A stretch of 64,000 nt of DNA from Methanotrichaceae archaeon. Lineage in GTDB: Archaea; Halobacteriota; Methanosarcinia; Methanotrichales; Methanotrichaceae. Made by a program: the position numbers and the translations under genes. Below are positions 9,198-57,395 of this stretch, in pieces. The notes beneath the pieces are model-generated. The model made no database searches. It was not told the origin of the DNA and saw only the letters and a list, made by a program, of their open reading frames with translations. Within the stretch, counting starts at the first letter, position 1; every line of letters begins with the position of its first letter. The stretch covers positions 1 through 64,000 of the forward strand of contig CAWDLW010000025.1 of NCBI GenBank assembly GCA_963803145.1, in the 5' to 3' direction.

Positions 9198-9521
9198 CCT
9201 ATTTGGCGGATGCAAATAGCCGTTATTAAAAGGCATGATGCCTGCTGAAGTTGCAAGGATAGTTTGGTCTAATATCCCATGCTGTTTTGGGCGAATTCTT
9301 GACATATTTAATTGCATAAATTTATCGCTATTATCATACTTTAGGAAAATAAGTCAACGTGAACAATTGCGATCTACTGCTACTGAATAGCCAAAGTAGC
9401 CAAGGTACGTCTAGCTATGTTCCTACATTTTTAAGCCTTTTCTCGATTGAATAGATCTGAGAAAGCTGTAGGCACCCTTATTCAAATAAGTTTTTATAAC
9501 ATAACCATAAATGCTGCATTG

Positions 9522-11450
9522 ATGCCAAATGATAATAATGAGCCGATAATTACTAAGATAAAAAATCTAAAAGAAGAAATAGATACATGCAATGATATGA
9601 TTAATTGTCTAAGAGAAAGAAATCAAGATTCATCATCAGTAATATCAGCGCAAAATATGCTTAATGGAAGGCTTGCTTTTATCAGTGGAGAATTCAATAA
9701 TTCAAAAAAATGTTATGAAGATTCTATTTCCGGCCTACAAGATCTTAACCTATTTGAGGAAATGTCAGTAGTGGCTCTAGAAGCGGCAAAGGAGTTTTGG
9801 GACATAAAAGATATCGAGGCCGCAAAACAGTTTTCTGAGGATGCAGTCAATGGAATTAAATATTCATGGATGATTACATCATTACCAAATAAACTAAGTT
9901 TGCCAGAAACTGCAATAAGAGTTTACGATTTCTCCATAGGCCTATGTTACTCGATTAAGGAATATGACCAAGTATTTGAATATGTTCAGCGAGTTAAAGC
10001 GCATTGGCTTCTAGATATAATGGCTTTGCAGCATCTTGGGAAATCAGTTCCTTTTCGGCGGCTATTGGTGGGGAGAAAACTGGATGATCTACTAATAAAT
10101 GATAAATCTGAATTTACAGAACTATCTAGCGAACTGGATAGCCGATGGAAGAATTACCTTTCTGGACACCTTTTAGAGAAAGAACTTGAAAATATAGAGG
10201 AAAGGGTCTTAGAATCCTATTCTAAATATTCAAGACACTTTGATGGACCTATTGTGGCAATGGCATCGATACCCACTATAAAGGACATACAAAGACGACT
10301 GGACATCAATGAAGGCATATTAGAATATTTTGTACAGAAAGATGGCGTTTATATAATTGTAATCAAAAATAATGATTATGAGATTGAATTCAAATCTATT
10401 GATCCTAATATATTGAAAGAACGTATTCCTTTTATATACATAAATTTGATTCAAGCTGAGAGTAGAAGACAGGCTGAGAACAGGGCAAAGGAAACAAAAG
10501 ATATCGATAAATCGGAGACAATTAATGATTGGAAAAATTCTTATCCAAGCCCTGTAGAAGGCTTGAAATGGCTATATGATATTTTAATTGAGCCTGTCGA
10601 AGATAATATTAGAAATGTTAATAGACTTATAATTTGTCCACATTGGTTATTAAATATCGTTCCATTTGCAGCTTTGCTTTCCGCAAAAGACAACAAGTAT
10701 GTTGTAGAATCCAAGAGCATCACATACTCACCCAATGCTTCTATTTGGGCCAAGATGATGGATATCAAGAAAGAAAAAGCATCATCTAAAGAGACTATTG
10801 CTCTAGTTGTTGGTGTAGAACAAATGCATGTTTCAAAATGGTGGGATTCTGTTGGAAACTTCATTGGCAAATTAATTGGGAACGAAAATATATCTGATTT
10901 TGAAGGAGAAGCAGCGAGTATTGCCAAAGATCTCAACGCCATTCCACTTATAGGGCCATCCGCACAAAAAGATGCTATCCTCAATCGATTTCAATCGTCG
11001 GATATAATTCATTTTAGTTGCCATACAGTTGAACGCGCGAAACCCTTGGTTAATGGACTTCTCTTGGCGGATGGCGTATTGACCCTTGCGGAAATTCTGA
11101 TTAATGAAAAGATTGGTGGATCTAGTCCATCCATCATAACTCTAAGTGCTTGCAGAAGCGGTATCAATAGAGTGGAGCCCGGCGATAATATATGGGGCAT
11201 AGGGTATGGATTTCTTGCACGATGTGGCTGCCCTATACTCTCTTCACTTTGGCCAGTGGATGCTGAGGCTACGAGATTCATAATGGAAAGATTTTATAGA
11301 TATGGTATTATTAATTCTGATTGGTCAGATGCTTTGAAGAAAGCGCAAAATGAGCTAATGGTCTCCTTTAGCCGACTTGATAAAAAGGGAAGATCCATTA
11401 GCTTTAAGGATCCTTACTATTGGTCGGGTTTCTTCTTGCTCGGACCTTGA
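9522..11450 (+). CDS. CHAT (caspase-like) protease with helical/TPR-like N-terminus
   Basis: IICPHWLLNIVPFAAL, IIHFSCH (His), TLSACRSG (Cys), SLWPVDAEAT, PYYWSGF; AT-rich; start ATG 9522 (ORF open from 9447). Confidence 0.9.
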   Translation: MPNDNNEPIITKIKNLKEEIDTCNDMINCLRERNQDSSSVISAQNMLNGRLAFISGEFNNSKKCYEDSISGLQDLNLFEEMSVVALEAAKEFWDIKDIEAAKQFSEDAVNGIKYSWMITSLPNKLSLPETAIRVYDFSIGLCYSIKEYDQVFEYVQRVKAHWLLDIMALQHLGKSVPFRRLLVGRKLDDLLINDKSEFTELSSELDSRWKNYLSGHLLEKELENIEERVLESYSKYSRHFDGPIVAMASIPTIKDIQRRLDINEGILEYFVQKDGVYIIVIKNNDYEIEFKSIDPNILKERIPFIYINLIQAESRRQAENRAKETKDIDKSETINDWKNSYPSPVEGLKWLYDILIEPVEDNIRNVNRLIICPHWLLNIVPFAALLSAKDNKYVVESKSITYSPNASIWAKMMDIKKEKASSKETIALVVGVEQMHVSKWWDSVGNFIGKLIGNENISDFEGEAASIAKDLNAIPLIGPSAQKDAILNRFQSSDIIHFSCHTVERAKPLVNGLLLADGVLTLAEILINEKIGGSSPSIITLSACRSGINRVEPGDNIWGIGYGFLARCGCPILSSLWPVDAEATRFIMERFYRYGIINSDWSDALKKAQNELMVSFSRLDKKGRSISFKDPYYWSGFFLLGP

Positions 11451-13292: not shown

Positions 13293-15508
13293 TCATTTGA
13301 TGGGCCATTCTGGTATGGCTTTATCTATCTCTTTCATCAAGCGAATGGTCTCCTTCAAGGCTACAACGACCTTCTGGTAATGAGTAAGATCATCATAGGA
13401 TAATTGTCTGCCTCTTCGATCTTTAAGCCATTTCTCACAGACCTGATAGCCTCCTACATAGAAATTCCAAACCTCCAGAGGGACGCCATCGAAGTATTGT
13501 ATTTGGTTTATTTTGATGCAGCCATTTTTGTTATCATCATGAACGATGAACTTTGGGTATCCTTTCTCTACCTGGTTATTTCCTGGCATTGGATAGTGAG
13601 TAATGAATTTGGAGACTTCAGGGGAGTCTAACACGTGCAGCGAAACTAGTTCCTTTCCAAGTCCGCATAGTTTACGGAAGAGATCAATACTTGATGTCAG
13701 CGGCACTCTAGGGAAGTCATTCTTCAGGAACTCAGCATAGCGCTGCCTGTAGGTTGGCGAGTGGAATATGGAGTAGATGTAGTCGAAAACGTCCTCTGGC
13801 CCGAAGGTAGTTGTCAAGTCGCCGTGACCATCTGAGATGAACTTGAGGTTGAGGCATGATTCAATTGCCGAAACAAAATCGTGGCTTAGATTGGGGGTTC
13901 GGCCATCTTTGCCGGGAGGCCAAAATGAGTTCTGCAATGTGTTTTGGCGTGAGGACTTCTGTTCAATGGATGGATAAAGATAAAGTGGGAAAAGATTGTT
14001 GATGTCGTATGCAGCACATGATTTATGTCCACATATTAGAGCTGTAGCTAGAATATCCCATTGATCTCGTGTTTGTCGAGTGGCTATCAGACCTAAATTC
14101 CCTTTCGGCACCATATGTTGCATTACTTCTTGTCTTGGAAGTTCTACAACATCTTGACTGTGATAATAATATCTAAAATCAAAAGGCCGATAAAGACATT
14201 TCGTGAAATGGCTCTGCCATTCTGAATTCTCTGATAAGGAGCGCCTTTTTTGATTTAATTTCCAATCACGTGTATCTGAAAGGTTGTATTTTTCCCGTAT
14301 TTTATCATCTAAAATATTTAAGTTTCTGAAGTCCTCAATTCGAGTTCGAAGTGATGCTTGATCGCAATCCAACACAAAGTGGTCGCGATGCGTTTTTACT
14401 CCTGTAGAATTAATTGGCATTATCTCTGTAATTTTCCAATTTCTTTCATACTCTGGCTGCGAAGTGGTATCTTGAGGCACAAAAAAATAGAATGGAGGAC
14501 GTGGTTCTATGATTGTCCATGGAGTGTTACTGACACCATTTACGAGTAACTTTTCATACTTGTTTTCCCTACTTCCCCATAGGTCTGCATGATAAATTGT
14601 TGCTTGACCCTCCTTATTCGGCTCTTTTACAAAGATTCCGATTGCTACACCCTGCTGGATGTCGAAAATATTCTCATCTTTTGAACCATCGGGAGAGCGC
14701 TCTTTCTTTTTGCTATTTCCATGTAAATTTAGAATATAAATTTGTGTAAAATTAGCGATTAAAGATTTGCGCATCTCTCTGAATGTAGGATTATCAAGAT
14801 AACCGTTATTGGTGATGAATGCCAAAATGCCTGCACCAGTATGCGCAATTCTCCACTGTCCCCAACGGATAAATTTAACATAATCATCCAATAAGAGTTT
14901 CGGATTATGTTCTTTTATGTCATCATGTGGATAATAGTCTTTCCGAATAAGATCAATAATCCATTTACCTTTATTCGCCGAATTTGCAGAATATGGTGGA
15001 TTGCCTAAAACTACCATTATCGGGTAATCACGCTTGACTACTGAAGCTGAACGTGCCTCTTTTCCTATGACCTCATAACCCCACAAGGATTTCCATGGAT
15101 TATCAGATTCCTCAAGCGTGTTTGTAAGGTAGATACCCAATCGCTCATCACTGGCAAAGTCATAAGCCCAATCTTTTTGTAAATCCAAGGGCAAATCCTG
15201 ACCAGCTAGTTGCATTCCGAGCTTGAAATGTGTTATAGCATAAGGTGCCATAAGCAATTCAAACCCAAAAATACGTGTCAACAAGTAACGTTTAACGTAT
15301 TCAGACCATAGACCGGCATTTCCATATTTCATGAATTCGCTTCGGATCAAATCAACTATCGCATAGAGAAAAGTTCCTGTTCCTGTAGCAGGGTCAAGCA
15401 TAAGAACCTTGGGGCGTATTTCATGGACGATTCTTGTGGGAAATGCATTCTTTTCTGGCTCTCCTCGAAAATCGGTAAAAAACGTTTCTCTGTCGAATTC
15501 AATGGTAC
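13293..15508 (-). pseudogene. Type ISP/IIG-like N6-adenine methyltransferase-specificity enzyme, N-terminally truncated by IS630
   Basis: LDPATGTGTFL (motif I), GNPPYS (motif IV), FITNNGYLDNPTF, YRPFD, GGYQVCEKWLKDR (ISP C-terminal domain); reading frame ends at the IS end. Confidence 0.85.
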
Positions 15509-15510
15509 TA

Positions 15511-16693
15511 GTGCAGCATAACACAAGTTTTTTATCCTAGCAAGTCCTTATGATCGCTAATCATGTCGAGGAAAACAATATTCGTCGTAAAATTGACAGA
15601 TGAGGATCGGGAATATCTGAACCAGTTTATTCGCCATGGAAAGGCATCTGTAAGAAGCGTGACTCGTGCCAGGACACTGCTCATGGCAGACGAAGGTTAC
15701 TCCAATAAAGATATCGTAAAGATTCTAAAAATAACCAGACCTACGGTTAACAGTGCAAGGAAAAGGTACTGCCAGGAAGGTTTGGACTCTGCAATAAACG
15801 ATAAACCAAGAAGCGGCGCACCTCCAAAGATAGATGGAAGGATTGAGACACAAGTTACCCTTCTTGCCTGTTCGAAACCACCGGAAGGCAAATCGACCTG
15901 GACTCTGAAGCTTTTAGCCGATAGGCTCGTGGAAATGGAGGTAATAGAATCCATATCTACCATGACCGTTCAGAGGATCTTAAAAAAAGCGAGACCAAGC
16001 CTTGGCAGAAGGTTAGATGGTGTATTGGCGAGATAACAAGCGATTACATCATGCATATGGAAGATGTGCTGGATCAATATGAGCAACCCTATGATCCTAA
16101 GCATCCTTTAATCTGCATGGATGAGATGCCATGCCAATTGATAGACAACGTTTTAGTTCCTATTCCTCCTAAACCTGGAAAATCACAAAAAGTCGATTTT
16201 GAATATCGCCGTAATGGTACATGCTGTGTTTTCATCGCCTTTGATCCACATGCCCGTTGGAGAACAATATCTGTTGAAGAACACCGGACGAAAATTGATT
16301 ATGCCCATTTTATGAAAGGGCTTTCCCAGAAATATCCTGAGGCAGAATACCTTAAAGTTGTCCAGGATAACCTTAACACTCACTCATCTGGTTCATTTTA
16401 TGAAGCATTCTCGCCTGAGGAGGCGTTCCAGCTTGCCAAGAAGTTTGAGTTCCATTTTACTCCAAAGAAGGGTAGCTGGCTTAACATGGCTGAGATTGAG
16501 TTCTCGGCTCTTTCAAGGCAATGCTTGAACCGACGAATTGGCGATATCAAAACTTTAGCCAAGGAAGCGAAAGCTTGGGAACAGGATCGGAACAGGGCTA
16601 AAGTAGCTATTCGATGGAAGTTCACCAAAGCCAATGCAAGAGAGAAGTTCTGTAGGCATTACCTTAAGATAAAGAATTAATGTTATGATGTAC
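15511..16693 (+). mobile_element. IS630-family element (1183 bp)
   Basis: TIRs GTGCAGCATAACA / TGTTATGATGTAC, flanked by TA within CTAG; ORFs 15563-16036 and 16051-16680 joined by an A7 -1 frameshift at 15982. Confidence 0.92.
15563..16680 (+). CDS. IS630 transposase (programmed -1 frameshift)
   Basis: HTH ORF-A; shifted frame KKSETKPWQKVRWCI; DDE motifs CMDE, VQDNLNTH, SWLNMAEIEFS. Confidence 0.9.
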
Positions 16694-49213: not shown

Positions 49214-50296
49214 TAGTTAATCCACGTAATTTTTACCTCATAGATACCCTTAAATAATTAATATACGATATAGCCGTTCATGGGCAGGAAACCTGTAATT
49301 GTAAGACATATCTCGAAGGTAGAATTAGATCAATTGTATAAAGATGAGAGAAACATAAGAATTAAAGAACGGCTACTAGCGATAATACATTTATACGAAG
49401 GAAAGAATGTATATATAGTAGCTGATATTCTTAAACGAAGTGAAAAGACAATAAAGAATTGGCTAAGCGATTGGAACAAACAAGGATATGATGGATTGAT
49501 ACCACAGAATAGAAACGGCAAAGAACCAATGATATCTTTTGATGAATGGGATAAAATTATCGAAGAGATTGAGGACAAAGGAATGACTATAAAAGAGGTA
49601 ATAAAATATGCAAAAGACACAAGAGGCGTAGAATATTCGTATAAAGGTGGTTGGAAGATTTTAAGATCAATAAAGAAAGTCAAATATGGTAAACCATATA
49701 TTAGAAATAATAAGAGGCCTGTTAATGCAGAAAGTTTTCTAAAAAAAGGATAGATTCAGTAATAACAACAGTCAAAGAACCTATTATTGGATTCCTTGAT
49801 GAAAGCTCTTTGCAACAGCGACCTAATACACGCAGGGTTTTAAACACCCATATGCTAAATTATCAACCTGGAAAAGTTAGGTCTAGAACTGTTTTTGGGT
49901 TCATTGCATTGAATGGAAATGATGAAGTTATGGTCTCTCACTCATCCAAGAAAGAAGATTTAATGATCTTCGCCCAAAAATTGAGAAGTAACAATATTAT
50001 GAGACCAATATGTATTGTCCTAGATAATGCTAGAATACATCTAGCTAAGAAGTTTAGGGCATTAGCCCACGAACTTGATATCCATTTAATATATAACGTG
50101 CCATATTCCCCTGATTTAAATCCTATAGAGTTCGGTTGGAAGGATTTTAAAAGAGAGATATCAAAATATACTGATTTTGATGAAGCTATTGAGGATGCCC
50201 AAGATTGCGCTTTACAAATATTTTATTCCAATAAAGATGGATACTCTAAGTCTTGGATAAAGCAGTTTATAAGGTAAAAAGTTGGGAGAATGACTA
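49214..50296 (+). mobile_element. IS630-family element (1083 bp), relative of 17426-18508
   Basis: TATAGTTAATC / GAATGACTATA ends with TA duplication; ORFs 49280-49753 and 49810-50277 with an A-run frameshift. Confidence 0.9.
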
Positions 50297-50451: not shown

Positions 50452-50790
50452 TCAAACCGCGCTGCACCCTCTTTCCTTCGTCCTCACTCGAACAACATCC
50501 TCCACAGTATAGATGAAAATTTTGCCGTCTCCAGCCTCGCCGGTGTGTGCAGTTTCGCAGATTGTATCGATCACCGTCTCTGCATCCGCGTCATCCACAA
50601 CAAGCTCCAATTTTATTTTTGGCAGGAACTCGACTCTATAGTCTCCCGCACGCCACTGAAGAGCAATGCCCTTCTGCCTTCCTCGGCCCTTGACCTCAAT
50701 GGCGGTCATTCCCGAGAAGCCTTTTGCATCCAGCTTTTCCCTAAGAAGGTTCAGCTTCTCAGGCCGAATTATCGCCTCAATCTTCTTCAT
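50452..50790 (-). CDS. glnK: P-II nitrogen regulator (second copy)
   Basis: [30 protein letters not shown]. Confidence 0.93.
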   Translation of the reverse strand: MKKIEAIIRPEKLNLLREKLDAKGFSGMTAIEVKGRGRQKGIALQWRAGDYRVEFLPKIKLELVVDDADAETVIDTICETAHTGEAGDGKIFIYTVEDVVRVRTKERGCSAV

Positions 50791-50799
50791 GTCTAAACC

Positions 50800-52062
50800 T
50801 CAAGAGTAAGCTCCTTCTCCGTGCTGGCTGATGTCGAGTCCAACGGACTCCTCCTCATCCTTGACCCTGATGCCCATGACTGCATCTATGGCCTTGGCGA
50901 TGCCGAAGGTTACTACAAATGAGTAAATCCAGACGCTTACGATTGCAATTATCTGCACAACCACCTGATGCGCATTTCCTGCAAAGAGCCCGGCTGATCC
51001 GATGCTTGCGAAAAACCCTGTTGCAAGGACGCCCCAGGTGCTGCCCATGCCGTGGCATGCGAGCACATCAAGAGAGTCATCTACCTTCTTGCTGCCTCTT
51101 ATGATGAGAATTGCATAGTAACCTACAATAGCAGCGCCTACACCTATGGGAATTGCCGCCAAAGGCGTAACGAAGCCTGATGCAGGAGTGATCGCCGCAA
51201 GTCCAGCCACTGCACCTGTGACTATTCCCAGGGCGCTGGGGGCTCTATGCCTCCATGAGAGTATCATCCATGTTGTGGCTGCGGCAGCTGCTGCAGTGTT
51301 TGTAGTGACAAAGGCATTTGCAGCTATGCCATTTGCTGCAAGGGCCGATCCTGCATTGAACCCAAACCATCCGAACCAGAGCAGGGCAGCGCCCATGACC
51401 GTCGTAGGTATATTATGCGGTTCCATTGGGTCAGTCCCAAAGCCCTTTCTTGCCCCGACAACCATAGCTACCGCGAGCGCTGCAACTCCTGCGCTTATGT
51501 GTACAACGAGGCCGCCCGCAAAGTCCAGTACACCTAATTGAGTCAACCATCCTCCTCCCCAGACCCAATGAGCTATTGGATCGTAGACAAGGGTAGCCCA
51601 TGCGAGGGAAAAGATCAGGAATGAGCTGAACTTTATTCGCTCGACAAAGCTTCCAGTGATGAGTGAAACGGTTATCACGGCGAACATTGCCTGGAAGATC
51701 ATGAACGTGAGACCTGGTATTGTAAGGCCCTCTTTCACATCTATGCCGACTCCACTTAAGCCCAGGTGTTCAAGGCCGCCTATGATTCCGCCGATATCCT
51801 TTCCAAAGGCTAAAGTGTAGCCGAGGAGAATCCATTGAAGGCTTATTATGCCCATGATTGCAAAGCTGAATATTATCGTCGATATGGCATTCTTTTTCCG
51901 AACCATTCCCCCGTAAAATAGCCCCACTCCTGGAATCATTATGAGTACAAGGGCCGCACTGATGAGCACCCAGGCATTATCTGCAGCATTTATCTGCCCG
52001 GTATCTGCAGATGCTGTGCCCAATAGAGCAGCCAATAATAGCAATAGCCAAACTGCACGCAT
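50800..52062 (-). CDS. amt: Ammonium transporter (second copy, with signal-like N-terminus)
   Basis: [32 protein letters not shown]. Confidence 0.95.
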   Translation of the reverse strand: MRAVWLLLLLAALLGTASADTGQINAADNAWVLISAALVLIMIPGVGLFYGGMVRKKNAISTIIFSFAIMGIISLQWILLGYTLAFGKDIGGIIGGLEHLGLSGVGIDVKEGLTIPGLTFMIFQAMFAVITVSLITGSFVERIKFSSFLIFSLAWATLVYDPIAHWVWGGGWLTQLGVLDFAGGLVVHISAGVAALAVAMVVGARKGFGTDPMEPHNIPTTVMGAALLWFGWFGFNAGSALAANGIAANAFVTTNTAAAAAATTWMILSWRHRAPSALGIVTGAVAGLAAITPASGFVTPLAAIPIGVGAAIVGYYAILIIRGSKKVDDSLDVLACHGMGSTWGVLATGFFASIGSAGLFAGNAHQVVVQIIAIVSVWIYSFVVTFGIAKAIDAVMGIRVKDEEESVGLDISQHGEGAYS

Positions 52063-52190
52063 TGTTACCACCAATTGATATGAAAAATTGCTATTTAATA
52101 AGCGTGTTTAGGAAAAGATATGTAAAATTCATAGAAATTATGATAAATTATGATCGCGGCTGAATTAAAGGTTTAAGGCCAGATGCTGCA

Positions 52191-52249: not shown

Positions 52250-53557
52250 TTAACCCTTTTTGATGATCCTCCAAATGGCTATTATCCCGATGGTGTTTAC
52301 GAGTATTATCAGTATGATGCCGATAATCTTTCTAGTATCGTTTCCGTTTCCACTGGCGGCTGCTGCAAGATCGATTGAACACTCCCCATTCACGCATATG
52401 TTTAGAGATTTATCGCCGCTTGAAACTGTGTAAAGCCCGCGCTGCAATCCCTTGAAAATATAGTTATCATCACCGGAGGCGTTTGCTAATAGCTTTCCGC
52501 CATTATAGAGCGAGACCTCGCCTGATGCATTTGTCACAAGGAGGTCATAGCTGTCCTTGATGGGCAAAGGCCTGGATGAGGATATGTTCCAGGGCAGACC
52601 AAGCAGATCTAGAATCGTCGGGGCAATATCCTCCTCGAACCAGATGCCTCCCAGGTGAATCTCATCAACGCCAGGGCCGAATACGGCCAACGGAGTTCTC
52701 AGGCTTTCCAGGCGGTCGGAAAATTTGGCTGCTGAATGGCCACCCTTTCCTTTCTCGTCGGGAAATGACATGCCATGATCTGCGGTTACAAATAATAGCA
52801 CATTGTGCTTGCGGCATGTCTCAATCAGCTTCCCCAGGGGCGCATCCAGGCCCTTGATAATTTCAAGATAATCCTTTTGGCCGAGGCTCTGACCACCGCT
52901 GTCAACTGCACCCACGTTGATCATGAGGATAAATGGGCGATTTCCCATATTTTCAACAAGGTCTGAGGCAGCTTCAAGCCCCCAGCGGTTATATCCAATG
53001 TATGTCTCTGTTCCGTGCCCTACATCATACTCGGGAAAAGCATCGCGCCATCTCTCCAAGACCGCGCGTAAATCAGCAGGAAGATTCTTCTTGGCACTCA
53101 AAGATGCATTCGCATTATAGATTGAGTTGTTGCCGAAGTAGAGAACACCATCCTGTCTTATAAGCATCTCTCGAAAGTCGGCATGTTGAAGAATCGCCAA
53201 GGAAAGATAACCATTCTCATGCGCCACATCAAAGATCGTTCTTCCTAAAGATTCAGAATCTGCCTGCACTGAGCCTGCAACAATAATGCTATGGCTTTTC
53301 AATGTCTCAGGGACTCTTGAGCGCATATCGAGCACTCTTGCGCCATCGCCTGTGAGATTGAAAAGAATGGTTTTGCTGAGCTGTATTCCATCCATTGTAT
53401 AAGGACTAAACTCGCGCTCAGGGTAGACATAAGAGGCGCCGAGACCATCTACAACCAGGAGAACTGCACCTATGGGATGCTGCTCCTCGCTGACCTGAAC
53501 ATCCAGTGCACTGCCTGTGCTTAATAAGAGTAATAAAACAAGCAAATGCAGGATCAT
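52250..53557 (-). CDS. Alkaline-phosphatase/metalloenzyme-superfamily surface protein
   Basis: LLVVDGLG, VTADHG, DIAPTILDLLG; signal peptide and C-terminal TM helix. Confidence 0.8.
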   Translation of the reverse strand: MILHLLVLLLLLSTGSALDVQVSEEQHPIGAVLLVVDGLGASYVYPEREFSPYTMDGIQLSKTILFNLTGDGARVLDMRSRVPETLKSHSIIVAGSVQADSESLGRTIFDVAHENGYLSLAILQHADFREMLIRQDGVLYFGNNSIYNANASLSAKKNLPADLRAVLERWRDAFPEYDVGHGTETYIGYNRWGLEAASDLVENMGNRPFILMINVGAVDSGGQSLGQKDYLEIIKGLDAPLGKLIETCRKHNVLLFVTADHGMSFPDEKGKGGHSAAKFSDRLESLRTPLAVFGPGVDEIHLGGIWFEEDIAPTILDLLGLPWNISSSRPLPIKDSYDLLVTNASGEVSLYNGGKLLANASGDDNYIFKGLQRGLYTVSSGDKSLNICVNGECSIDLAAAASGNGNDTRKIIGIILIILVNTIGIIAIWRIIKKG

Positions 53558-53671
53558 TGGAGACTTATCGATAATCTTGTAGGATTTATCTCTATCTCTT
53601 TCAGGCTTACTTTATGGATCTTCTAAGGATCGATGCTTTGATTAGCATTAACAATCATTAAGCCGATTGGC

Positions 53672-56383
53672 ATGCCGCCAGATACCTCATCGCCCATAGG
53701 CTTCAAGGTTTTGGTAATAGTATCCCGACCTTTGGATCTCAAGGACCTCCCGAACATTGCAGACCAGTGGGCCCTGCTCGATGGTTTGAGGAGAGTCAAT
53801 GCCCCCGCATACCTGAAGATTCTCCGGCCGCCCACAGTGGAAGGCCTCCGCACAGAAATCCTGAGCGGTTACGATATTGTTCACTTTGATGGACATGGCT
53901 CCTTTGGAGTGCGCTGCTCAGGCTGTGGCTGGCTCAATCCATCAGGAAGCGGGGCGTGCGGCCGATGTGAAGCCATTCTAGAAAACCAGGATGCTAAAGG
54001 CCACTTTTTCTTCGAGCGGGAAGATGGGAAGTTCGATTCTTTAGCTGCGGATGAGCTGGCGGAGATCATCATGAGCGATCCAGGATCTACTACAAAACTA
54101 GTCTTCTTGAGCGCATGCGAATCTGCCAAGGGAGGAGAATCCAGTCTCATGAATGCGCTGATAAAGAAGGGCGTTCCTGCAGTTCTGGGAATGAATGAAA
54201 CCGTCCCGGCCAGGGCGACCATGGCCCTGGCAGCCCCCTTCTATGCCGGTCTGGGAGCAGGAATGACCATAGCCAGAGCCTTCCAGGCCGCCCTGCCAGC
54301 CCTGAAGCGATTGGATGACGGCGCTGATCTTCAGAAAATCCCTATGTTGGATGGGCCAGGAAAGGAGATACGCCTTCTATCCTCCAAGGTTGCTGGAAAG
54401 GTAAGCTTCGATATCGAGCCACTTTTTGGGGTTCCGAGCCACGAGTTTGTGGGAGATTACATACGCAGCGATCTGCCTCGTGGTCGGAAGGGATTTGTCT
54501 CACGAGCTATAGACGCACTTCAGGGAGGAGAAAAGCTCGTCGTCCTCACAGGCCAAGGCGGAATAGGCAAAACTGTACTCGCGGCCGAGGTTGCACGGCG
54601 ATTGGTCTGGCGCTATCAAGGTGGAATCTTTTGGCGGAGTGCTGCCGATATGAAGCAATTGGGCTTGAATGAAGTGCTGGACGCTTTTGCCAGTGTCTTC
54701 GGCCCCGAGTTCCGCACGCTTCCCATCGACGCTAAACGCGATCAGGTTCTTAGTTATCTGCGAAATTACGACACCTCCAGCCTCTTAGTAGTGGACAACG
54801 CTGAGAATGTGCAGGACGAAAACCTCTGGCGTTTCCTGGAGAGCATCTCGCAGCCCAGTGCAGCTCTCGTAACCACACGGATAAGCCTGCCCCGAGAGGG
54901 CCGAGAGATCCGCGTGGAGGAGATGGAGCCGTTTGAGGCAGCCAGGCTCTTTATTAAAGAGGCCAGGCAGCGCTCACCCAAGTGGGGAGAGCACCTGAGC
55001 AGCGAAGATACAGACTGCTTGGACGAGATATCCCGCATACTCCACGGCCATCCGCTAGCTATCAAGCTGGTGGCTCCCCTGGTGGCAAGCAGAAGTTTGA
55101 CCAGCATTCGGGATGAACTTCGAAGAAATCCACCCAAAGGAGTATTAGATCGCTTTGACGTCTCTTACGCAGGCCTAACTGAGAGCCAGAAGGAACTGTT
55201 CCGCCGAATGGCTGTTTTCTATAGCTCTGTGATGGATCATGCAATTAAGGACGTGTGCTTGGATAGTGTCCAGAAAGATGATTTATCGATCTCAGATGGG
55301 GATCTCGGCGAGCTAGTCGGGAAGTCCTTTGTGGACAGAATTGAGGTTTCTGCTCAGGACGAATTAGGTAACGAGTCTATCGTTTATCGCTACCGCCTTC
55401 ATCCTCTCACGCGCCAGTATGCTATTGCTAAGGCTGGGGAGGATGTTTTGGCCAAGTATCGTGCTAGAGCCGCAAAGTACTTCCTGGGTTATGCTCAGCA
55501 TTTCCGTGAAAACTTCAACATGCTGGAGTGGGAGCGGGAGAATATCCTAGCTGGGATGGACTGGGCAGTGGAACAGCAGAGATCGGCATCCAATGAGGAG
55601 CTAGAGTCCGCTTCCTCCTGTGTTCTCCAATTCATGTTTGCCATTGATGATTATTTAGATACTAGAGGCTACTGGTCCGAATACGGACTGCGTCTTAGTC
55701 AGGCCATTGATGCTGCTGATGCTACTGAAGATAGAAAAGAGAAATCCATTTGGTTGTGTAACCTTGGAACTCTGGCTCAAAAGACTGGTGACTATGATGA
55801 GGCTCGTAAGCTCTACCAGCAGAGCCTAAAAATCTATCAGGATCTGGATGATAAAAAGGGCGCTTCTTATGTACTAGGAAATCTGGGCGTATTGGCTCAG
55901 ACAAATGGCGATTATGATGAGGCTAGACAGCTGTACCAACAAACTATAGATGTGGCAAACCAGCTTGAGGATAAAAGCAGCCTATCGAGGGGACTGCACC
56001 AGCTGGGTAACTTGGCCTATATGATCGGCGACTACGACGAGGCTCGTGGACTCTACCAGCAGAGCATGGAGATCAAACAGGCTCTGGGCGACAAGAGCGG
56101 GGTTTCCAGGTCACTGCACCAGTTGGGCATTCTGGCTCAAGACACGGGCGACTACGACGAGGCTCGCAGGCTATACCAGCAGAGCATGGAGATCGATCAG
56201 TCTCTGGGCGATAAGAGTGGCGTTTCCAAATCATTGCATCAACTGGCACTGCTTGAGGAGAGAACCGGGAATGTGAAAGAGGCATTGAGGCTAATCCGCC
56301 AAGCTGAGATAGCGTTCAAGGGACTAGGCAGCCCTTACGAGAAGCAGGCTCGTCAGGTTAGAGAAAGACTTGAGAGAAAGTGA
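53672..56383 (+). CDS. CHAT protease - STAND (NB-ARC-like) NTPase - TPR protein
   Basis: VHFDGHG and FLSACES (His/Cys dyad), GQGGIGKT, LLVVDNAE, GHPLAI, RLHPL, five TPRs. Confidence 0.92.
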   Translation: MPPDTSSPIGFKVLVIVSRPLDLKDLPNIADQWALLDGLRRVNAPAYLKILRPPTVEGLRTEILSGYDIVHFDGHGSFGVRCSGCGWLNPSGSGACGRCEAILENQDAKGHFFFEREDGKFDSLAADELAEIIMSDPGSTTKLVFLSACESAKGGESSLMNALIKKGVPAVLGMNETVPARATMALAAPFYAGLGAGMTIARAFQAALPALKRLDDGADLQKIPMLDGPGKEIRLLSSKVAGKVSFDIEPLFGVPSHEFVGDYIRSDLPRGRKGFVSRAIDALQGGEKLVVLTGQGGIGKTVLAAEVARRLVWRYQGGIFWRSAADMKQLGLNEVLDAFASVFGPEFRTLPIDAKRDQVLSYLRNYDTSSLLVVDNAENVQDENLWRFLESISQPSAALVTTRISLPREGREIRVEEMEPFEAARLFIKEARQRSPKWGEHLSSEDTDCLDEISRILHGHPLAIKLVAPLVASRSLTSIRDELRRNPPKGVLDRFDVSYAGLTESQKELFRRMAVFYSSVMDHAIKDVCLDSVQKDDLSISDGDLGELVGKSFVDRIEVSAQDELGNESIVYRYRLHPLTRQYAIAKAGEDVLAKYRARAAKYFLGYAQHFRENFNMLEWERENILAGMDWAVEQQRSASNEELESASSCVLQFMFAIDDYLDTRGYWSEYGLRLSQAIDAADATEDRKEKSIWLCNLGTLAQKTGDYDEARKLYQQSLKIYQDLDDKKGASYVLGNLGVLAQTNGDYDEARQLYQQTIDVANQLEDKSSLSRGLHQLGNLAYMIGDYDEARGLYQQSMEIKQALGDKSGVSRSLHQLGILAQDTGDYDEARRLYQQSMEIDQSLGDKSGVSKSLHQLALLEERTGNVKEALRLIRQAEIAFKGLGSPYEKQARQVRERLERK

Positions 56384-56414
56384 AAATGATCTATAGCGAT
56401 CAAGGTGTATTATA

Positions 56415-56627
56415 ATGTTAAAAATTCTCTGCCGGAATAATAACTGCGCCGCTCTAAATCATATCTTCCAGTGGAACGAGCGTCCCCACCTGGAAGCGGA
56501 AGGCAGACTAGCGAAGGAGGGAGACGAGGGAGCTGTCTCATTCGTTGTGAAATGCACCTCCTGCGGCACTAAGAACAAGATCTGGGTGACGAAGGTCAGA
56601 ACGATTGGTGTAACGAGGAAGCCCTGA
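56415..56627 (+). CDS. Small Zn-ribbon protein
   Basis: CRNNNC...CTSCG; operonic spacing. Confidence 0.7.
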   Translation: MLKILCRNNNCAALNHIFQWNERPHLEAEGRLAKEGDEGAVSFVVKCTSCGTKNKIWVTKVRTIGVTRKP

Positions 56628-56628
56628 A

Positions 56629-57102
56629 ATGGCAGGTGTGGCAGGCGCTCCGGATGCCATAGGCGAAGATGTCACAGAGCTGGATGAGTTCTGGCTGGAG
56701 ACTGCCCGGACTGCAGTAAAGGAGTCCATAGGCTCCCTGGAGGAGGCTGCCAAGCAGCTCATAACTGCTGTGACGCTTGTGGAAGGCATCTACTTCGCTG
56801 CAGTCTCCTTCAGCGATCTGAAGAAGATATTGGCAGTTGCGGGATTAGATGCATGGGTGAGGATAGCAATCTTCGTCAGCCCAATCGTTATCTGGCTGAT
56901 CTGTCTGTTCTTTGCAGTGAGGGTCTTTACTCCTGAGAACTACAAGACCAATCTTAGTTCGCCCACACTTGCAGAGCAGGTTTATCGGGATATTGTCGGT
57001 TACAAGCATAAGAATTTGAAAAGAGCTTACTGGGCCCTACTGATCGGGTTTGTGCCGCTTATAATAGCCATTATCTATTACCTGAAATTGCTGGACGTCT
57101 AA
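56629..57102 (+). CDS. 3-TM membrane protein (Pycsar-effector-like topology)
   Basis: Starts 1 bp after the upstream stop; LEEAAKQL-TM-TM-P..Y...K...L-TM. Confidence 0.7.
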   Translation: MAGVAGAPDAIGEDVTELDEFWLETARTAVKESIGSLEEAAKQLITAVTLVEGIYFAAVSFSDLKKILAVAGLDAWVRIAIFVSPIVIWLICLFFAVRVFTPENYKTNLSSPTLAEQVYRDIVGYKHKNLKRAYWALLIGFVPLIIAIIYYLKLLDV

Positions 57103-57395
57103 AGTTGGCTTGATTGCCAGGTGAAAAATGGTGTGCCGATACGGTTAACCTGATGAGAGATGGCTACACCTGACCGAGGAGCATTCGGAGATGGCAGGTT
57201 ATTGTGCCGGTGTTCTGGAGACCGTGGAAGATCCTGATACTTATCGAGCAATTGAAAAATAGGGTCGTGTCTGTGAGTTATTGATAATCGCTAACGAATG
57301 GCACAATTGATGCTCTTTGATAAAATGAAACTCGTGTGTGCGATTTCTGCAAGAACTTTCAGTAATCCACACCCACGACCAAAAATAGAAGGATC

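Follow-up and report, generated by a model that had tools for sequence, protein, structure and literature searches.

Organisation and insertion site of the cassette

The window analysed in this study, a stretch of 64,000 nucleotides (nt) on contig CAWDLW010000025.1 of a Methanotrichaceae archaeon, carries a cassette of three genes on its + strand; near-identical database proteins are labelled Methanothrix. Gene 1 (53672..56383) encodes a CHAT-NB-ARC-TPR protein of 903 amino acids (aa), which its Pfam domains suggest to be an NLR-like sensor-protease. Gene 2 (56415..56627) encodes a 70-aa four-cysteine zinc ribbon with the pattern C-x4-C ... C-x2-C, here called type A, and gene 3 (56629..57102) encodes a 157-aa three-helix membrane protein, for which the AlphaFold2 (AF2) model and hhalign comparison point to a shortened, distant relative of PycTM. 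A preliminary description of this DNA had proposed a tight three-gene operon, which was confirmed by the open reading frame (ORF) coordinates: all three genes lie on the + strand, with a gap of 31 nt between genes 1 and 2 and of 1 nt between genes 2 and 3. Reading the sequence, we found a Shine-Dalgarno-like AAGGTG (56402..56407, +) 8 nt before the ATG of gene 2, which would be its ribosome-binding site, and a Shine-Dalgarno-like GAGGAAG for gene 3 (56615..56621, +), which lies within the last codons of gene 2 (T-R-K), 8 nt before gene 3. Genes 1 to 3 look like one transcription unit with coupled translation.

The flanking genes encode an ammonium transporter, a P-II-like protein (identified by eye), a membrane protein of the alkaline-phosphatase superfamily, a Fae-Hps fusion and a DsbD-like protein. 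In all five related genomes compared, two of the same genus and three of another genus, the phosphatase-like and Fae-Hps genes are direct neighbours, separated by 5 to 324 nt; in the window the distance between them is 3.8 kb. The bounds of the extra DNA determined by blastn were 53558/53616 to 57388/57393, with the match to genome G002 stopping at 53557 and restarting at 57389, and that to G001 stopping at 53615 and restarting at 57394. The block inserted relative to the same-genus genomes spans 53558..57395 (no strand assigned) and consists of the cassette with a 114-nt leader before it and a 293-nt trailer behind it. A 3.8-kb block is therefore inserted into a core-gene neighbourhood, as had been proposed from the housekeeping-type neighbours. 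No flanking repeats were seen by eye at the insertion, the trailer had no match in other cassette loci, and the leader had none in other loci except for 58 nt shared with an intergenic region of G001.

Gene 1 combines CHAT, NB-ARC and TPR regions

The N-terminal part of the gene 1 protein (residues 25-210; 53744..54301, +) matched the Pfam CHAT protease domain, of the caspase-like clan CD (PF12770, E 9.9e-22, 78 bits against a cut-off of 24). It is followed by an NB-ARC STAND NTPase region (residues 276-476; 54497..55099, +; PF00931, E 2.2e-8, 34.1 bits against a cut-off of 23.5) with a Walker A motif GQGGIGKT at 54551-54574 (+) and a Walker B motif (VVDNAE region) at 54782-54805 (+). The C-terminal TPR array, at about residues 686-890 (55727..56341, +), gave four TPR_12 stretches above the cut-off (E 2.8e-46) and a TPR_MalT match at 689-883. 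The earlier CHAT-STAND-TPR domain calls are borne out by these matches.

To assess conservation, we used an alignment (A4) of 18 full-length proteins with 28-68% identity, composed of 12 rows from the Methanotrichaceae clade and six bacterial rows. The residues H71 and H75 in HFDGHG and C149 in SAC were invariant in all 18 homologues, and so were G294, G296, G297, G299 and K300 of Walker A and D375 and N376 of Walker B; the NTPase signatures GxxGxGK and hhhhDN were likewise kept in 18 of 18. By analogy, we take H75 of GHG (codon 53894-53896) and C149 of SAC (codon 54116-54118) to be the catalytic residues. The protease dyad and Walker motifs are intact, in agreement with what had been noticed in the single sequence. 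Between the His and Cys motifs, the CHAT domain contains an insert with four cysteines (C82, C85, C96 and C99, CxxC-x10-CxxC; 53915..53968, +), which was found in 12 of 12 Methanotrichaceae-clade rows and 0 of 6 bacterial rows. The number of TPR repeats was highly variable among the homologues, and the TPR array is presumed to be the ligand sensor.

Gene 1 has the tripartite STAND layout, with an N-terminal CHAT effector, a central NB-ARC NOD and C-terminal TPRs. Both an NB-ARC-type STAND/NLR-like NTPase and a CHAT/clan CD caspase-like domain with its His-Cys dyad are present, so that the protein is classified by domain make-up as an NLR-like sensor-protease with predicted protease activity.

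Gene 3 encodes a distant, shortened relative of PycTM

The AF2 model of the gene 3 protein, with a mean predicted local distance difference test (pLDDT) score of 78, consists of three helices at residues 17-61, 73-98 and 112-155 (56677-56811, 56845-56922 and 56962-57093, +). The 16 N-terminal residues are not conserved. In the loop after helix 2, P102, N108 and S111 are conserved throughout the family, and the pLDDT of residues 101-110 is 58. A profile search recovered 960 cluster representatives of the family at E<=1e-3, of which 361 reached E<=1e-10. No Pfam, NCBIfam or PADLOC family was matched by gene 3 above threshold.

We compared the gene 3 family with PycTM using hhalign, with the PycTM side represented by 11 proteins above the Pfam PycTM cut-off from Chloroflexota genomes. 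The two profiles aligned with a probability of 93.9% (E 1.6e-7) over 134 collinear columns, covering nearly the whole protein. They have in common a proline after helix 2 and a K-x3-L-[RK]-x-A motif before helix 3, and the gene 3 family is without about 35 residues of the PycTM loop between helix 2 and the segment preceding helix 3. The PADLOC PycTM model PDLC02364 was weakly matched by 32 of 99 diverse family members (best E 4e-6), and its match to the gene 3 sequence alone was also weak (E 5e-4). Among the same 99 members, eight matched the CBASS 2TM effector model and four matched Pfam PycTM at E<=0.01. In the ESM Atlas, the PycTM label was carried by 21% of the members of a neighbour cluster. 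A wide VIA-align search with the gene 3 model brought up only helical bundles of a generic kind, the highest Z of 10.5 being less than a meaningful match between helical proteins needs, and tblastn of the gene 3 protein against plasmid and phage collections gave no match.

From the sequence comparisons, gene 3 is classified as a distant, shortened PycTM homologue that lies outside the family by Pfam's rule. The Pycsar-effector-like layout that had been noted for the three-transmembrane protein is real and reflects distant homology. As described in the available text of PMC11224242, PycTM is the membrane-disrupting abortive-infection effector of Pycsar, and in that of 10.64898/2026.08.12.744502 it appears as 'pJV1-spdB3 family 3TM'. 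The profile-profile homology and the shared motifs suggest that gene 3 descends from, and works like, the PycTM effector family.

Gene 2 encodes a small zinc ribbon coupled to gene 3

Gene 2 had 59 homologues, and its invariant residues are C6, C11, C47, C50, N8, F18, W20 and A40. The AF2 model was a four-stranded ribbon (pLDDT 81), which together with the four invariant cysteines upheld the earlier assignment as a small zinc ribbon. No Pfam, PADLOC or NCBIfam family was matched by gene 2, and EACC1 was not among its matches in a Pfam listing up to E 1. Foldseek searches of the PDB with the gene 2 and gene 3 models returned nothing at E<=0.001.

A basic tail (IGVTRKP) had been pointed out at the end of the zinc ribbon. 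The tail is present, but it did not hold as a protein feature, because its codons double as the Shine-Dalgarno-like site of gene 3. At the gene 2-gene 3 junction, GAGG or AGGAGG strings, or ATGA stop/start overlaps or gaps of a few nt, were found in many of the 61 loci described below. Since the tail codons, in this locus as in many homologous ones, probably serve gene 3 as its ribosome-binding site, conservation of the tail needs no explanation at the protein level, and we rejected it as a functional peptide motif.

A physical link between the two small proteins is seen in natural fusions. Three distinct 213-aa proteins from several sources (P0276, P0329 and P0330) join an N-terminal four-cysteine module (CxxC ... 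CPYCGTEN) to the membrane domain; relatives in the subfamily often have C-terminal extensions. The fused module matched neither of the two zinc-ribbon profiles described below. The mean net charge of the zinc ribbons was +2.8 for type A and +1.9 for type B. In the membrane protein, the N-terminal segment was net acidic in 91% of the 99 members and the loop after helix 2 was net basic in 80%, which fits an N-in topology with both of these parts in the cytoplasm.

The trio is conserved across archaea and bacteria

We scanned one genome per species with the gene 3 profile and obtained 61 loci. The archaea among them are Methanotrichaceae, Methanoperedens, ANME-1/2 and Methanosarcinaceae, and the bacteria are Chloroflexota, Acidobacteriota, Clostridia, Nitrospirota, Omnitrophota and a Stigonema. 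A small four-cysteine ORF lies directly upstream of the membrane gene at 56 of the 61 loci, being of type A, as in the window, at 33 and of type B at 23, according to hidden Markov models (HMMs) built here; the five other loci include one without any upstream sequence. At least 3.3 kb of upstream sequence was available for 42 loci. Of these, 35 (34 by script, and L044, missed by a coordinate rule, added by hand) carry the full trio of CHAT-STAND gene, small ORF and membrane gene in the same order and on the same strand, in archaea, Chloroflexota and Acidobacteriota. A lack of co-occurrence of the small genes with their homologues had been set beforehand as one of the outcomes, along with a match to a named system, that would speak against the proposal; co-occurrence was found in both counts. 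Archaea and bacteria thus share the trio as a conserved unit.

Seven of the 42 loci departed from this arrangement: L053, L054 and L073, with the pair and no CHAT gene; L083; L084, a fragment; L086, with a divergent CHAT gene; and L088, with CRISPR genes. When 19 upstream ORFs were scanned, Pfam CHAT was confirmed in 13, and 11 of those 13 also had an NTPase domain. The remaining six comprised three C-terminal pieces with TPRs only, together with one RAMP protein, one beta-helix protein and one CCA-adding enzyme; two of the TPR-only pieces (L080 and L089) have their CHAT part encoded upstream, in an ORF of its own. In L086 (2904-6417), from a Nitrospirota metagenome-assembled genome (MAG), a permuted gene with AAA_16 followed by CHAT is divergently adjacent to the pair; further AAA genes, a radical-SAM gene and a TPR gene lie around it. 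In the Stigonema locus (L083:5962-6743), a 95-aa cysteine-containing ORF comes after, not before, the membrane gene, and there is no CHAT gene nearby. Stand-alone membrane homologues were found in L025, L050 and L066.

As a control, we inspected the loci of canonical PycTM genes, and 0 of 11 had a CHAT, NOD or zinc-ribbon match. The control genes from Chloroflexota (L093 and L095 among their loci) had no obvious cyclase within about 1.5 kb on each side, and two of these genes stood beside a gene that by eye resembles a helix-turn-helix (HTH) regulator.

Among 61 related genomes, the membrane gene was present in 14 (13 of 36 other genomes of the family and 0 of 24 outside it) and the zinc-ribbon gene in seven; neither gene was found with these queries in the two same-genus genomes. 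The trio in relatives sits at other genomic sites. Some Methanotrichaceae MAGs have both type A and type B cassettes on different contigs (L032/L072 and L051/L067). A 3.8-kb contig labelled 'Desulforapulum' encodes a membrane protein 76% identical to the query in the best segment, which groups with Methanothrix rows in the tree, and this contig may be mis-binned.

Decayed copies were also seen in relatives, in the form of split CHAT genes, a frameshifted gene 3 duplicate and fragments. In genome G035 (L016:6968-12175), the CHAT gene is split into ORFs of 722 aa and 320 aa, and the membrane genes are in tandem, the second being frameshifted; a neighbouring pair resembles HicA/HicB by eye. The copies in L026, L027, L023 and L028 were CHAT fragments from the N-terminal side, joined to C-terminal parts of the membrane gene, as well as membrane genes that had been cut short. 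The remnants at these four loci point to frequent decay of the cassette.

The components co-diverge and the cassette crossed domains

Across 35 cassettes, the pairwise identity of the membrane proteins correlated with that of the NOD parts (Spearman 0.89) more closely than with that of the CHAT parts (0.49), the pairs not being independent. When 58 membrane proteins were placed in a maximum-likelihood tree, the midpoint root, as drawn, separated the two types completely, with the 21 rows of type B and the 32 of type A on opposite sides. The number of label changes on this tree was one for type B and five for type A, and 0 of 500 shuffles gave as few; the support of the type B branch was modest (69/5).

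A bacterial clade of 12 rows was nested among the Methanotrichaceae type A rows, which argues that the cassette crossed between the domains. The bacterial proteins were 43-55% identical to that of the window for the membrane protein and 27-31% for the CHAT and NOD parts.

Other features near the cassette and further CHAT genes

A DDE_3 transposase fragment (49810-50277, +; 155 aa, E 9.7e-16) is located 3.4 kb upstream of the cassette, past the amt/P-II genes. The amt/P-II pair itself (50452-52074, P-II identified by eye) is 1.6 kb from the cassette. In two genomes of another genus (L020:6296-11391 and L021:5766-11144), the cassette lies between the P-II and ammonium transporter genes on the same strand; the amt/P-II neighbourhood is common to these two loci and the window, and the insertion points differ. 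The window contains a second CHAT protein of 667 aa with a C-terminal CHAT domain (E 1.5e-40), near a Type ISP/Eco57I-like restriction-modification (RM) gene and an HTH transposase-like ORF; the coordinates of this neighbourhood are 9447-11450 (+), 13293-15524 (-) and 15563-16036 (+). A third CHAT gene of the genome is on contig C9.

Evidence on a defence role

The patchy presence, decay and relocation of the cassette, its variable TPR arrays, its transfer between domains and a CRISPR-linked copy are all typical of immune genes and suggest an antiviral role. The CRISPR-linked copy was found in a Chloroflexaceae MAG (L088:46-6546), in which a divergent gene 3 homologue directly follows type III-D CRISPR genes, namely Cas7_IIId (E 2.4e-163), Csx19 and another RAMP protein. 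There, an 86-aa Cys-rich ORF precedes the membrane gene with an ATGA overlap. No CHAT gene was found within 6 kb; the genome has seven CHAT genes, on contigs that could not be matched to that of L088.

Several observations weigh on the other side, both of a defence role and of the mechanism proposed below. Matches to PADLOC at E<=1e-10 were found for 12 of 142 flanking ORFs at 10 of 58 loci, so that the support from defence islands is thin, and about half of these matches were generic (AAA+, TatD, radical SAM and DAC). About five loci had convincing flanks, with type III-D genes, a type IIG RM gene, a DrmC-like PLD protein, PDC-S09 and a BrxP-like protein, and the window's own flanks are housekeeping genes. 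For the Pfam PycTM family (PF18967), gene 3 scores 8.7 bits, short of the 27.2 bits of the cut-off. A conserved motif for cleavage was not found. The seven of 42 loci without a same-strand CHAT gene, together with the stand-alone homologues, suggest that the output pair may act with other partners or alone. Finally, hhalign of zinc-ribbon types A and B gave a probability of 59% with one knuckle aligned, out of register. As only the zinc knuckle matched, no single family is claimed, and the two types are not demonstrably homologous.

Proposed mechanism and alternatives

Our best reading is that the trio is a three-gene NLR-like cassette for immunity or cell death, with a protease-triggered membrane effector and a zinc ribbon as its safety catch; we hold it tentatively, at slightly less than an even chance. 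The trigger, the cleavage and what is cut, the harm to the membrane and the action against viruses are inferred, as follows. The TPR array would bind the trigger, most likely a protein of the invader, upon which the NB-ARC part would oligomerise with ATP, and the N-terminal CHAT domains would be brought together and activated. Genes 2 and 3 would form the output module, with coupled translation keeping their products at a constant ratio. The basic zinc ribbon might bind the N-terminal helix of the membrane protein, which is acidic and would lie in the cytoplasm, and hold the membrane protein inert until the activated protease cuts the zinc ribbon or, less likely, the membrane protein itself. 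The freed PycTM-like protein could then assemble and breach or depolarise the membrane, and the infected cell would arrest or die.

Of the alternatives, the closest to this scheme makes the membrane protein the direct substrate and the zinc ribbon a docking adaptor rather than an inhibitor; the cut would fall either in the variable N-terminus of the membrane protein or in the conserved loop that follows helix 2. The loop combines conserved residues (P102, N108 and S111) with low model confidence (pLDDT 58), the zinc-ribbon/membrane fusions fit an adaptor as well as an inhibitor, and, in the available text of PMC12642450, EACC1 and gasdermins are themselves cut. However, the 16 N-terminal residues of gene 3 are not conserved, and a cut in the loop would presuppose that the loop is accessible. 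We consider direct cutting unlikely, at a level that still merits serious attention.

The signal may also not be viral. The cassette could be a regulated module for cell death or stress in filamentous or aggregate-forming prokaryotes, responding to membrane, nutrient or developmental signals. Its hosts are mostly Methanothrix, Anaerolineae, Stigonema, Methanoperedens, ANME and Methanosarcina, groups that are for the most part filament or aggregate formers. Most of the flanks are housekeeping genes, and the cassette is near amt/P-II genes in two genera and in the window. A link of caspase systems to a multicellular habit was made by Kaur et al. 2020 (PMC7159879, available text). Against this, the patchiness, decay and variable TPRs of the cassette, its movement between sites and domains, and its CRISPR-linked copy are those of an immune gene, and we regard a non-viral role as distinctly unlikely.

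A further possibility reverses the order of events, with the zinc ribbon and membrane protein serving as a sensor or anchor that reports membrane damage or recruits the STAND protein, and the CHAT domain degrading other cellular or viral proteins. In type IV Thoeris, caspase-like effectors reportedly cut many targets. However, gene 3 is homologous to an effector family, and gene 1 already has a large TPR sensor. A role of this kind was first proposed for EACC1 by Kaur et al. (PMC7159879), and according to the available text of PMC12642450 EACC1 has since been shown to be a cleaved pore former. We give this arrangement little credence. That the three genes are chance neighbours with no joint function can practically be dismissed, as 35 of 42 loci, spread over two domains, have them in the same order, the components co-diverge, fusions exist, and CHAT, NOD and zinc-ribbon genes were absent from all 11 canonical PycTM loci; the conservation data already contradict chance.

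Returning to the cassette with a protease-triggered membrane effector, we can state a wider proposal. The cassette would represent an undescribed class of protease-gated immune output, in which a 3TM effector of the PycTM/SpdB3 type, with its cytoplasmic loop shortened, has been rewired to a caspase-like NLR via a dedicated zinc ribbon. It would have moved between methanogenic or methanotrophic archaea and bacteria, and would exist in two co-diverged versions with unrelated zinc ribbons, with one lineage placed after type III-D. We think this possible, while favouring it somewhat less than its opposite.

The licensing of death effectors by proteases is coming to be seen as a main principle of prokaryotic immunity, and a 2025 survey covered ten modules of this kind (PMC12642450). 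If our reading is true, the cassette would add a module of a different make-up, in which a zinc ribbon is one of two small partners and the membrane effector is a helical protein common to cyclic-nucleotide systems. The same effector family could then respond to a second messenger in one system and to a protease in another. The cassette would also provide a testable NLR-like pathway from caspase to membrane for methanogens and anaerobic methanotrophs. Little is known of how these organisms deal with viruses, and they are important in digesters and in the cycling of methane. Copies from bacteria, with membrane proteins 43-55% identical to that of the window, make the cassette testable in ordinary laboratory hosts.

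Comparison with known systems

The preliminary description regarded the cassette as an undescribed system in an archaeon. No named system was matched, which agrees with the first part of this claim; the restriction to archaea does not stand, as bacteria also carry the cassette. The search for named systems comprised PADLOC, EACC1, CATASP and CATRA-N, all without a match. In PADLOC v2 (2023), no system model matched the trio, and gene 1 gave only TPR and weak ATPase matches. Pfam EACC1 (PF19953) had 0 matches in the whole genome at E<=0.01. Pfam CATASP (PF20271) and CATRA-N (PF20269) had 0 matches in the genome, the negative for PF20269 being weaker since this family had no match in control genomes either. 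In the literature searched, we found no description of a CHAT-STAND protein with a zinc ribbon and a PycTM-like protein.

The EACC1-caspase systems resemble the cassette in having a caspase-superfamily protease on a STAND/repeat sensor and a small, non-enzymatic, membrane-acting protein (PMC7159879 and PMC12642450, available text). In KrAvs12, as described there by Evans et al. 2025 (PMC12642450), the caspase-like domain cuts the small protein EACC1 into a pore-forming fragment. However, the cassette has two small proteins encoded downstream of the protease gene, whereas EACC1 is a single protein encoded upstream. EACC1 is an alpha+beta protein with a single transmembrane segment, and the cassette membrane protein is a three-helix PycTM relative.

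With PycTM of Pycsar, the cassette membrane protein shares the three-helix membrane architecture, a collinear profile and the motifs after helix 2 and before helix 3. The partner of PycTM is the pyrimidine cyclase PycC, whereas the cassette has no cyclase and its partners are the CHAT-STAND protein and the zinc ribbon. The tripartite effector-NOD-TPR layout is common to gene 1 and Avs proteins, and caspase-like N-terminal domains are known among prokaryotic STANDs (PMC13581612, available part). However, no PADLOC Avs model matched gene 1 (PADLOC v2, 2023 families), and the earlier label 'Avs' is not established. The supplements searched for PMC13581612, a paper that distinguishes 589 STAND clades, contain no mention of CHAT, caspase, Methanothrix, Methanosaeta or PycTM.

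Bacterial gasdermins follow the same logic of a protease and then a membrane pore (PMC12642450, available text), whereas the cassette effector is an integral helical membrane protein. General Pfam scans of genes 2 and 3 showed no gasdermin family, no gasdermin model having been searched by name. Type III-E Craspase, in the accounts available, resembles the cassette in that the TPR-CHAT protein Csx29 is switched by a sensor and cuts a dedicated partner, Csx30. It differs in being activated by a CRISPR RNA complex and in having a sigma-factor pathway as its output; the cassette has a NOD module and other partner genes. The CATRA ternary system is likewise a caspase-dependent three-component conflict system with a small associated protein (10.64898/2026.08.12.744502 and PMC8195603, available text), whereas the cassette genome lacks CATRA-N and CATASP matches.

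The protease-effector modules surveyed in the available text of PMC12642450 are ten: MBL, alpha/beta hydrolase, Pepco, EACC1, PCaspase, bGSDM, CATASP, MPE, CalpT and Csx30. None of the ten, as presented there, is a zinc ribbon with a PycTM-like protein. The cassette is not categorically new: its make-up differs from those of the known protease-gated effector systems, and its logic belongs with theirs.

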